This document shows, piece after piece, positions 27,149 to 29,722 of a stretch of 64,000 nucleotides of DNA; positions within the stretch are counted from its first letter, which is position 1; every line of letters begins with the position of its first letter. The stretch covers positions 160,001 to 224,000 of the forward strand of contig CAVXJS010000009.1 in NCBI GenBank assembly GCA_963762145.1, in the 5' to 3' direction. The position numbers were made by a program, and so were the translations under genes. Below the pieces are notes generated by a model. It worked only from the letters and a program-made list of their open reading frames with translations. It was not told the DNA's origin and ran no database searches. The DNA comes from an uncultured Candidatus Rokubacteria bacterium. GTDB lineage: Bacteria > Methylomirabilota > Methylomirabilia > Rokubacteriales > CSP1-6.

Positions 27149-28375
27149 TCAGGCGGAGGCGAAGGCCCGGTCGAGGGCCTGGGCCAGGTCGGCGATGAGG
27201 TCGTCGGCGTCCTCGATCCCGACCGCGAAGCGGATCAGGTTGTCCTTGATCCCGATCTCGAGGCGCTCCTCGCTGGTGAGCTCGTAGAAGCTCATGACCG
27301 CGGGCTGCTCGATGAGGCTCTCGACCCCGCCCAGCGAGGCCGCGATGTACGGGATCGTGCACGCGTCCACCACGCGGCTGGCCGCGTCCAGGTCCCCCGC
27401 CACCTCGAAGGAGACGACCCCGCCGAACCCCCGCATCTGCTTGCGGGCGATCGCGTGCTCGGGATGGGTGGACAGCCCCGCGTAGTGCACGGTGGCGATC
27501 CGCGGGTGCCCGGCCAGGAACTCGGCCACCGCCTGGGCATTGGCGTTCTGCCGCTCCATGCGCAGCGCGAAGGTCTTGAGCCCGCGCACCAGCAGGTACG
27601 CCGCGAACGGGTCCAGGACCGCGCCGGTGATCCCCTGCAGGCCCCGGATCGCGCCGACCAGATCGGCCGAGCCCAGCACCGCGCCGGCCAGGAGATCGTT
27701 GTGGCCCCCCAGGTACTTGGTGGCGGAGTGCACCACCACGTCAACGCCCCACTCGAGCGGCCGCTGGTTGTACGGGGTCGCGAACGTGGCGTCGATGACG
27801 GTCTTCACCCGGTGCCGCCGGCCGATGGCCGCGAACCGCTCCAGGTCGAGGATGCGATTGTACGGATTGGTGGGCGACTCGCTGACCAGGACCCGGGTGG
27901 TGGGCCGGATCGCGTCCTCGAGGGCGTCGTAGTCGCCCGCGGGCACGGTGGACACCTCGATGCCGTAGCGCGAGAGCGTCTGGTTCAGGAACTGCCGCGT
28001 GCGCCGGTAGCTGTCGTCGGTGACCACCACGTGGGTGCCGCGCGAGAGCATGGCGAAGAGCGCGGTGGTCATCGCCCCCATGCCGCTCGCGAAGAGCAGG
28101 CACTCCCCCGCCCCTTCGAGCGCGGCCAGCTTGAGCTCCGCGATGCGCTGGGTCGGGTTGCCGTAGCGCCCGTACTCGACACGCTCGATCTTGCCGTCGA
28201 AGTGGTCCTTCAGCTCCTGGGTGCTGGCGAAGGTGTACGTCGCGGTCTGCACGATCGGGGTGGTCAGCGAGTGGGCCGGCTTGGGCCGCGTCTCGCCCCC
28301 GTGCACCGCCAGCGTGCTCGGACCTACCGGCTTGCGGGCCGGGTCGACCGGCTGCGGCTCCGGACGCTCGGCCAT
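27149..28375 (-). CDS. metB: Cystathionine gamma-synthase (plant CGS-like)
   Basis: [60 protein letters not shown]. Confidence 0.85.
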
Positions 28376-29722
28376 CAGGGCACCAGCGCCCGCGCCTTCT
28401 CGACGTGGCGCGCGATGGTCCGGGCGACCCGCTTGGCGTCCGCGGGCAGCTCGACCGGCTTGTTCCGGTAGGTCGGCTTGATGCCCTCGAGGGCTCCCAT
28501 GTGGTACGCCGCCTTCTGGTCGGCGAACTTCAGCCCGTTCGCGGTCGAGAGCACGACGATGCGCTCGCCGGAGCGGATGACCTTGCGGTCCACCAGCTTG
28601 CGGAGCGCGGCGAGGGCCACGCCGGTGTGCGGGCAGTTGAACATGCCCGGTACGGTCCGCCCGCGCCGCCTCGTCGGCCAGCTCCTGCTCGCTCGCCTGC
28701 TCGACCACCCCGTTGAAGCGCTGGAGCGTGCGGATGGCGCGCTTGACGCTCACCGGGTTGCCGATCTGGATCGCGGTGGCCAGCGTCGGCTGGGCGACGA
28801 TCGGCTCGAACCGCTTGAAGTCATCCTGGAAGGCGCGGTAGAGCGGGTTGGCCCGCTCCGCCTGGGCCAGGCAGATGCGCGGGAGGCGGTTCACCAGCCC
28901 CAGCTCCTGCATCATCAGGAAGCCCTGGCCGAGCGCGTGCACGTTGCCGAGGTTGCCGCCCGGGATCACGATCCAGTCCGGCACCTCCCAGTCGAACTGC
29001 TGCACGATCTCGATCGCCACCGTCTTCTGGCCCTCGATGCGCAGGCTGTTCATCGAGTTGGCCAGGTAGATCCGCTTCTCCTTGGTGATCTCCTGGACGA
29101 TCGCCATGCAGCCGTCGAAGTCGGTGTCGAGCGAGAGCACGAGCGCCCCGTTGGCGAGCGGCTGCACGAGCTGGGCGATCGAGACCCTGTCCTTGGGCAG
29201 GAGCACCACCGAGGGGATGCCCGCCGCCGCGCAGTAGGCGCCGAGCGCCGCCGAGGTGTCGCCGGTGGAGGCGCACGCCACCGCGTCGATGGGGGTGCCG
29301 CCCGCCATCATCTCCTTGACCAGCGAGACCAGCACCGTCATCCCGAGGTCCTTGAAGGACCCGGTGTGCGAGTTGCCGCACTGCTTGATCCAGAGGTCCT
29401 CGACGTGGAGCTGCTTGCCGTACCGATCGGCCCACAGGAGATTGGAGTTGCCCTCGTACATCGACACGATGTTCTCGTTGTCGATGAAGGGCACCACCCA
29501 CTCCTTCTTGCCCCAGACCCCCGAGCCGTAGGGGTAGATGTTGCGGCGGTAGCGGTCGTCGAAGAGCTGGATCCAGGCGGCCGCCGAGCGCGACCGCAGC
29601 GCGTCCATGTCGTGCTGGACCTCGAGCAGGTCCCCGCAGGTGGGGCAGCGGTAGATGACCTCGCGGAGGTCGAACTCGCCCGGACACCCGTTGATGCACT
29701 GGAACCACGCGTTGTACGCCAT
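28375..29722 (-). CDS. thrC: Threonine synthase (plant-type), frameshift near 28650
   Basis: [50 protein letters not shown]-terminal [15 protein letters not shown] in ORF 28375..28644. Confidence 0.92.

Follow-up and report, generated by a model that had tools for sequence, protein, structure and literature searches.

A plant-type threonine synthase gene overlapping a plant-like cystathionine gamma-synthase gene in an uncultured Rokubacteria bacterium: a candidate bacterial O-phosphohomoserine branch point

In plants, threonine synthase (TS) and cystathionine gamma-synthase (CGS) compete for O-phosphohomoserine (OPH), and TS is activated by S-adenosylmethionine (SAM). Most bacteria use O-succinyl- or O-acetyl-homoserine as the substrate of the methionine branch, and OPH-dependent transsulfuration is taught as peculiar to plants. 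The 64-kb stretch of DNA analysed here (the window), which belongs to the genome of an uncultured Candidatus Rokubacteria bacterium (Methylomirabilota) from soil, carries a thrC gene for TS and a metB-like gene for a CGS-like enzyme that share one base in the sequence TGATG. This arrangement raises the question whether a bacterium divides OPH between threonine and methionine in the way plants do, as had been proposed in a sequence-only reading of the locus. We assign a probability of about one half to the interpretation that thrC and the CGS gene form a two-gene operon for a plant-like OPH branch point. The one-base overlap is as that reading described it and suggests translational coupling, both genes are genuine by their family scores, and the peptides quoted were all found in the translations. 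Throughout, NCBIfam equivalog cut-offs, Pfam and the Rfam gathering threshold served as family criteria.

The TS part of the proposal is the firmer one. The thrC product reaches 198.5 bits against TIGR00260, which is above the cut-off of 167.1 even without its C-terminus, and 163.7 bits against PALP. Comparison with the solved TSs yields 489.8 bits for Arabidopsis TS1 (1e5x), with query residues 9-359 placed on residues 45-398 of the chain, but only 175.2 bits for 2zsj, 155.1 for 6cgq, 154.1 for 1uim, 153.1 for 2d1f and 50 for 1vb3. A manual count on the alignment gives an identity to TS1 of about 61% (about 214 of 351 aligned positions). The protein contains the motif HTGSFKD and a zinc-ribbon-like motif of four cysteines at its N-terminus (C9, C13, C26 and C29). 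The likeness to the plant enzyme that the sequence-only reading had put forward is borne out by these comparisons, and we regard the assignment as a plant-type TS, from the N-terminal domain to the end of the protein, as strongly supported.

The CGS-like protein is a member of the Cys_Met_Meta_PP family (PF01053, 447.5 bits, E 3.6e-134) and falls below every NCBIfam equivalog cut-off, the best match being 391 bits against a cut-off of 600. It scores 303.3 bits against the E. coli-type MetB model TIGR02080 (cut-off 504.55) and 384.7 bits against the methionine gamma-lyase model TIGR01328 (cut-off 549.7), and it lacks the lyase motif Y-G-C-T. Tobacco CGS is the best of 87 solved matches (392.4 bits), and methionine gamma-lyases come next, starting at 349.8 bits. 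In a protein search space of 1.84 billion proteins, taken as one representative per 50%-identity cluster, 31,986 cluster representatives matched (E<=0.001), and the top 20 include a green-alga cluster (Micromonas, 418.6 bits, 50% identity), in which a UniRef name reads 'plant cystathionine gamma-synthase', and angiosperm CGS1 (372.9 bits, 47% identity).

The active site is plant-like as well. The catalytic tyrosine and the lysine that binds pyridoxal phosphate (PLP) align with Y163 of tobacco CGS and with the lysine of its HSATK motif, the roles being those given in PMC8428831, which names Tyr163 as the catalytic tyrosine. The motif around this residue, SYRRTRQF, reads Y-R-R-T-R here and Y-R-[RK]-T-R in plants, compared with Y-G-G-[ST] in E. 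coli MetB, methionine gamma-lyase, CGL-like rows and the paralog encoded in the same genome; lyases read Y-G-[GC]-T. A second stretch differs likewise, with [10 protein letters not shown] in the window CGS, (D/E)QPA(I/V)MSYW in plants and HPAxMTH in ordinary enzymes. A species-level scan (one genome per species, with the alignment of the plant-type CGS clade as the query) returned 80 loci, whose phyla were assigned from record titles. All 28 loci with an identity of 51.7% or more to the window CGS possess the plant-like form, and 27 of them have Arg or Lys two positions after the tyrosine. Neither residue occurs there in any of the 52 loci at 51% identity or below, of which 46 read YG[GCS][TS] and one YSGT, one is misregistered and four were left unread by the pattern. 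Best-match rank and active-site motif, and not a resolved tree, support the view that the CGS is plant-like.

The absence of metA and metX from the vicinity of the pair holds for the whole genome as assembled (6.26 Mb in 25 contigs, completeness 88%, contamination 5.4%). The MetA profile found no match in it, and the best MetX match reaches only 31.5 bits over a hydrolase-like stretch of 59 positions. A homoserine kinase gene, thrB, is present elsewhere (262.9 bits). MetA was likewise found in none of a panel of 31 related genomes, which includes the source genome and 18 same-genus relatives, several of them 92-100% complete. MetX-like genes (E<=1e-20) occur in five of the 31 (G028 with 280, G027 with 270, G003 with 195, G008 with 171 and G030 with 101 bits) and in two of the 18 same-genus relatives. 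Since the source genome has only two Cys/Met-PLP genes, it contains no MetY. The second of the two, on contig C11, encodes a 387-aa paralog that is most like gamma-lyases and succinylhomoserine sulfhydrylases and is kept in most relatives; judged by these similarities, it is the obvious candidate for a cystathionine beta-lyase. Its gene (G000:C11:702333-703478) lies within G000:C11:700883-703478 (= L006:51-2652), directly behind an open reading frame (ORF) whose start resembles, by eye, a GntR/MocR-type regulator. MetH is present in pieces, accompanied by a homolog of the MetE C-domain, and besides the plant-type thrC there are at least five TS-family genes. The pair itself is well kept: 22 of the 31 genomes have the TS match, the source genome included, and in 20 of the 21 relatives with this match the CGS gene follows directly downstream on the same contig.

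The same type of CGS also occurs in distant bacteria. By record title, the 28 plant-type loci belong to Methylomirabilota, Anaerolineae/Chloroflexia, Latescibacterota, Myxococcota, Planctomycetota, Thermodesulfobacteriota, Spirochaetales, Acidobacteriota and a 'Thermotogae' metagenome-assembled genome (MAG). Nine of these loci have a SAM riboswitch directly upstream on the same strand, seven of the SAM-I class in Chloroflexota and two of the SAM_alpha class in Latescibacterota, the latter lying between the plant-type TS and the CGS gene. SAM riboswitches turn genes off at high SAM, and the position between the two genes would give a plant-like logic in which SAM lowers CGS but not TS. Aspartate kinase directly follows CGS in five of the 28 loci, and other neighbours include aspartate-semialdehyde dehydrogenase asd (L060), a second TS type with a GHMP kinase (L040), MTHFR (L048), sulfite reductase (L061 and L064) and a second MetB/CGL-like enzyme (L055). 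This setting of SAM riboswitches and aspartate-pathway genes argues that the plant-type CGS serves methionine synthesis. A plant-type TS gene directly upstream is confined, among the 28 loci, to Methylomirabilota (L039) and Latescibacterota (L043, L045 and L062). Of five genomes that encode this CGS type outside Methylomirabilota, three yielded neither MetA nor MetX, namely a Chloroflexia MAG, a Pirellulaceae MAG and a Latescibacterota record titled 'chromosome: 1', which has the pair.

In the branch point that we favour, ThrB would make OPH from homoserine, the plant-type TS would turn OPH into threonine, and the overlapping and probably translationally coupled CGS would form cystathionine from the same OPH by gamma-replacement, with cysteine as the most likely partner. 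Candidates for the conversion of cystathionine to homocysteine are the C11 paralog and an aminotransferase-type lyase, and homocysteine would then be methylated by a MetH-type methionine synthase. TS and CGS, translated from a single message in which their genes overlap, would compete for what ThrB makes. OPH as the CGS substrate, cysteine as the donor, the choice of beta-lyase and a possible activation of TS by SAM are inferences. By its length of 27 nt, the spacer 5' of thrC is too short for a leader or riboswitch, and the search with Rfam found no match in the whole window or in three other loci of the genome. Since the gene overlap leaves no space for a riboswitch either, control of the partition at this locus would act on the proteins, and by analogy with plants a SAM-activated TS is the natural candidate.

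Several observations weigh against this interpretation, the first of which comes from the phylogeny of the CGS. A FastTree tree of 126 rows, which left out 28 of 150 representatives because they covered fewer than 340 query residues, places the window CGS in a 31-row clade (support 96) with the plant/algal clade (100), while the other 89 rows (99) comprise E. coli MetB, methionine gamma-lyase passing its NCBIfam cut-off and the paralog of the source genome. For IQ-TREE with a mixture model, 58 rows were used, consisting of the other 30 rows of the FastTree plant-type clade, 24 hand-picked rows from the rest and four references. The quick mixture tree keeps 21 ordinary rows together (91 in the Shimodaira-Hasegawa-like approximate likelihood ratio test). 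The backbone of the careful tree, computed with posterior mean site frequencies, is star-like with an unsettled bootstrap, and the window CGS is not united with plant CGS in it but has four bacterial rows as its only companions (90/85); a separate clade contains the plants and algae (100/99), and another one MetB and the lyases (94/87). The approximately unbiased (AU) test does not reject a tree with the window CGS among the 21 ordinary rows (delta lnL 9.53, p 0.358). The FastTree clade was therefore given up as proof of plant kinship, the mixture model having dissolved the backbone and the AU test being uninformative. The trees neither put the window CGS inside the ordinary MetB and lyase enzymes nor prove a sister relation to plants, and the plant likeness of the CGS claimed in the sequence-only reading is upheld by best-match rank and shared motif but not by phylogeny. 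NCBIfam gave no match at E<=1e-135 for 24 representatives of the plant-type clade, nor for P0153, P0246 and P0170, three of its five neighbouring rows, and the clade is without a curated name.

The second point is that the genome may possess another route from OPH to homocysteine. On contig C16 (G000:C16:25813-27376, = L036:8808-10377, minus strand), the gene of a 422-aa TS-family paralog has as its immediate downstream neighbour a ThiS-family gene for 92 aa, whose product ends in AIAGGR and which is one of seven ThiS-family genes in the genome. The paralog has the best TIGR00260 score of the genome, yet with 179 bits against characterised TSs it is no closer to them than the plant-type TS is, and in the ESM Atlas it falls into generic 'threonine synthase' clusters only. 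The gene is found in 27 of the 31 genomes, including G019, G021 and G029, three of the nine without the TS match. According to GapMind 2026 and PMC12172450, in their accounts of the route of Hasebe et al. (2024), MetM and MetO of Streptomyces form homocysteine from OPH and a sulfur-carrier thiocarboxylate, and MetM is often misannotated as threonine synthase (GapMind 2026). The C16 pair is a MetM/MetO-like candidate for a second OPH route by its gene order and family membership. This route alone may account for methionine synthesis without MetA or MetX in this bacterial order, and the thrC-CGS pair would then be a second draw on one OPH pool. Because the top-scoring paralog looks MetM-like, the plant-type TS is, on present similarities, the protein of this genome that can most securely be called a true TS. 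The idea of an OPH branch point agrees with a genome that has thrB but yielded neither MetA nor MetX, and with the riboswitch and aspartate-pathway setting elsewhere, but as first put forward it had overlooked both this second route and the five further TS-family paralogs.

The remaining points of this kind concern the content of the source genome and of other genomes with the motif or the pair. No MetC-type beta-lyase of the source genome reaches its cut-off, and the genome is incomplete and partly contaminated. Good MetX matches are found in two of the five genomes from other phyla with the same motif, one from Myxococcota (451 bits) and one a 'Deltaproteobacteria' MAG (440 bits), and the relatives G027 and G028 carry the pair together with their MetX-like genes of 270-280 bits.

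With these points in mind, we weighed other functions of the second gene. The CGS might be an OPH sulfhydrylase that takes sulfide or a protein thiocarboxylate as the donor and forms homocysteine directly, with no cystathionine. The lack of a MetC-type lyase above cut-off and the number of ThiS-family genes speak for it, as does the locus L061:1576-7626 of an Acidobacteriota MAG, in which the neighbours of a plant-type CGS are sulfite reductase and two fusion genes, one of aspartate kinase with JAB and one of the ThiS-ThiF-rhodanese type. We take this gene set to correspond to the one for thiocarboxylate-dependent homocysteine synthesis in Wolinella, and the setting suggests that in some lineages the plant-type CGS draws its sulfur from a protein thiocarboxylate. 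However, no carrier gene adjoins the pair in the window, in a Planctomycetaceae locus (L055) a MetB/CGL-like enzyme comes after the CGS, in keeping with transsulfuration in two steps, and the second Cys/Met-PLP paralog of the source genome could be the lyase. Altogether we consider a sulfhydrylase unlikely, though worth keeping in mind.

Alternatively, the enzyme could be an ordinary CGS or sulfhydrylase for acyl-homoserines, the acyltransferase being either non-homologous to MetA and MetX or encoded in the 12% of the genome that the assembly lacks. Plant CGS reportedly also accepts acyl-homoserines, and the plant-type motif is compatible with their use, because genomes with the motif or the pair also have MetX, as described for the Myxococcota and 'Deltaproteobacteria' genomes and for G027 and G028. 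The AU test, moreover, does not exclude a position beside the ordinary enzymes. This explanation has to contend with the complete absence of MetA and the rarity of MetX in the relatives, including nearly complete ones, with the Latescibacterota 'chromosome: 1' record, which has the pair and neither acyltransferase, and with the replacement of the Y-G-G-[ST] motif of ordinary enzymes. We judge it to be rather improbable.

A catabolic methionine or cystathionine gamma-lyase, whose pairing with thrC would be irrelevant to methionine synthesis, finds some backing in the solved matches that come next after tobacco CGS (350 bits) and in several NCBIfam matches, all of them methionine gamma-lyases. 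The protein is nevertheless below every lyase cut-off and has Y-R-R-T where lyases carry Y-G-[GC]-T, and such a role is disfavoured because SAM riboswitches precede the CGS gene in nine of the 28 loci and aspartate kinase and asd genes follow this CGS type; we therefore hold it to be very unlikely.

The last alternative concerns the integrity of thrC, in which the sequence-only reading had missed a frameshift (Table 1).

Table 1. Coordinates of the thrC-CGS locus within the window.
Feature	Positions	Strand	Remarks
Spacer, 27 nt	29723..29749	-	Separates the thrC start from the same-strand ORF upstream, which ends at 29750
thrC, codons 1-359, plant-type TS	28646..29722	-	ATG at 29722; TIGR00260, PALP
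One surplus base, run GGG then C then ATG	28645..28648	-	Breaks the thrC frame in this assembly
thrC, final 89 codons and stop	28375..28644	-	Stop TGA at 28377-28375; frame shifted by one base
TGATG junction	28373..28377	-	A common to thrC TGA (28377-28375) and CGS ATG (28375-28373)
Plant-type CGS-like gene, 408 aa	27149..28375	-	Cys_Met_Meta_PP; without the plant N-terminal regulatory extension

In this assembly, positions 27149-29722 of the minus strand read as one ORF of 857 aa because the surplus base, which shifts thrC after codon 359 into the CGS frame, joins the N-terminal part of thrC to that frame: 359 TS residues are followed by an Arg/Pro-rich stretch of about 90 residues that resembles no other sequence and then by the 408 CGS residues. 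Since the two thrC pieces align consecutively on Arabidopsis TS1, the C-terminal piece on residues 399-472 (E 4e-14) directly behind the N-terminal one, the gene is collinear and broken by a single surplus base. In nine of nine same-genus loci that were translated this base is absent, the stretch [13 protein letters not shown] runs unbroken and the CGS follows in an overlapping frame. Soil metagenome contigs of four runs from four studies (X1, X2, X8 and X9) were aligned to 27900-29400. One letter fewer at 28645/28646 is seen in a single X1 contig, which has no mismatches and one gap over 300 nt, in a single X2 contig and in three X8 contigs, and this gap is the sole indel listed across the 1.5 kb; X9 has no contig with the gap, and two of its contigs end at 28647. 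These are assembled contigs rather than raw reads, and one run is possibly the source of the window itself, so that they show only the existence of an intact thrC form in near-identical DNA. Because the surplus base is missing in all nine relatives and in contigs of three soil runs, we read the break as an assembly error and not as biology. A genuine frameshift, which would either turn thrC into a pseudogene or fuse a shortened TS with CGS and would leave threonine to one of the at least five other TS-family genes, accords with the single ORF but would exchange the conserved last 89 residues for an out-of-frame Arg/Pro-rich stretch and, given the intact relatives and contigs and the like breaks in the same assembly described below, is highly improbable.

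Among the long CGS representatives inspected, no TS-CGS fusion was seen. P0126, P0127 and P0130 (762-800 aa) are tandem proteins with two Cys/Met-PLP domains, and P0127, whose second domain lies within the plant/algal CGS clade, may be a fusion of CGS and a lyase; P0199 joins Cys/Met-PLP to Aminotran_5, and P0232 joins PALP to a Cys/Met-PLP domain of the ordinary type.

Further frame breaks are apparent in this assembly. A luciferase-like monooxygenase gene 3 kb upstream of thrC (30811-31900, minus strand) is split, with profile positions 1-175 in one frame and 194-312 in another, and the 716-aa ORF at 29750-31900 (minus strand) is another frameshift chimera, whose C-terminal half represents a distinct membrane protein that matches nothing in Pfam at E<=1e-5. 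On contig C16, metH (C16:89782-91889) is divided into three overlapping pieces in different frames, and the aminotransferase gene adjoining the MetM-like pair (L036 about 6323-8783) is also frame-split. The split metH and aminotransferase genes point to frequent single-base indel errors in the 25-contig assembly. Directly downstream of the CGS gene, the window holds a peptide/nickel-type ABC transporter set (23600-27362, minus strand) with a family-5 solute-binding protein (265 bits) and, by eye, two permease-like ORFs, which has no evident connection with the pair.

To place the thrC-CGS pair in context, we turned to the literature. A search that left subscription journals mostly outside found no paper proposing or testing an OPH-dependent CGS in bacteria, and such an enzyme is not mentioned in the accessible parts of GapMind 2020 and 2026. 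The plant TS and CGS have already been reported as non-cyanobacterial in origin (PMC3518814), so that bacterial relatives of both are implicit in the literature; in one supplement file of that paper none of the three enzyme names is present. Known is, hence, the plant-type TS/CGS system, and new would be its bacterial example, whose function we infer. This CGS type is found in at least nine bacterial groups by record title, is often under SAM-riboswitch control and is paired with a plant-type TS in Methylomirabilota and Latescibacterota. If the proposed branch point is true, it would fill gaps in the methionine pathways of many uncultured bacteria without MetA and MetX, it would point to a definite source among bacteria for two plant enzymes of non-cyanobacterial origin, and it would make the age of SAM-activated TS relative to plants testable with soluble bacterial proteins. 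A bolder extension, which we put forward as doubtful, is that the plant lineage inherited the whole threonine/methionine branch point from bacteria, by way of an operon like this thrC-CGS pair, and that bacteria already partition OPH by a SAM-activated TS, as the sole switch where the genes overlap.

When compared to known systems, the bacterial TS is closest to Arabidopsis TS1 (PDB 1e5x, 2c2b and 2c2g), with which it shares the N-terminal domain, the [15 protein letters not shown] stretch and a collinear C-terminus. It differs in lacking a transit peptide and the first roughly 36 residues of the crystallised chain, in its four zinc-ribbon-like cysteines, none of which is found at the aligned plant residues, and in that its gene overlaps that of CGS. 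The window CGS has the catalytic-tyrosine motif, the PLP-lysine motif HSATK[YF]LGGHND and the (D/E)QPA(I/V)MS(Y/F) stretch in common with plant CGS (tobacco, PDB 1qgn/1i41) and is 47-50% identical to the angiosperm and green-alga representatives. However, the MTO1-type N-terminal extension of about 130-150 residues is absent, the domain starting at about residue 20 here and at about residue 150 in P0141, and no supported clade with plants is formed under the mixture model. An arginine occupies the position of tobacco Lys165, a residue that presumably contacts the phosphate of the substrate.

The MetA/MetB/MetC pathway of E. coli, which proceeds via O-succinylhomoserine, is alike in fold family and gamma-replacement chemistry, and a beta-lyase and methionine synthase probably come next here as well. 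In contrast to E. coli, the genome contains no MetA, Y-R-R-T-R takes the place of Y-G-G-S-Y-R, and the partner gene is thrC rather than metL. Streptomyces MetM/MetO likewise uses OPH for bacterial methionine and has its candidate counterpart on contig C16 of the same genome. MetM, however, is a TS homolog of fold type II, whereas the window CGS is a Cys/Met-PLP enzyme of fold type I, and no carrier-protein gene accompanies the thrC-CGS pair.

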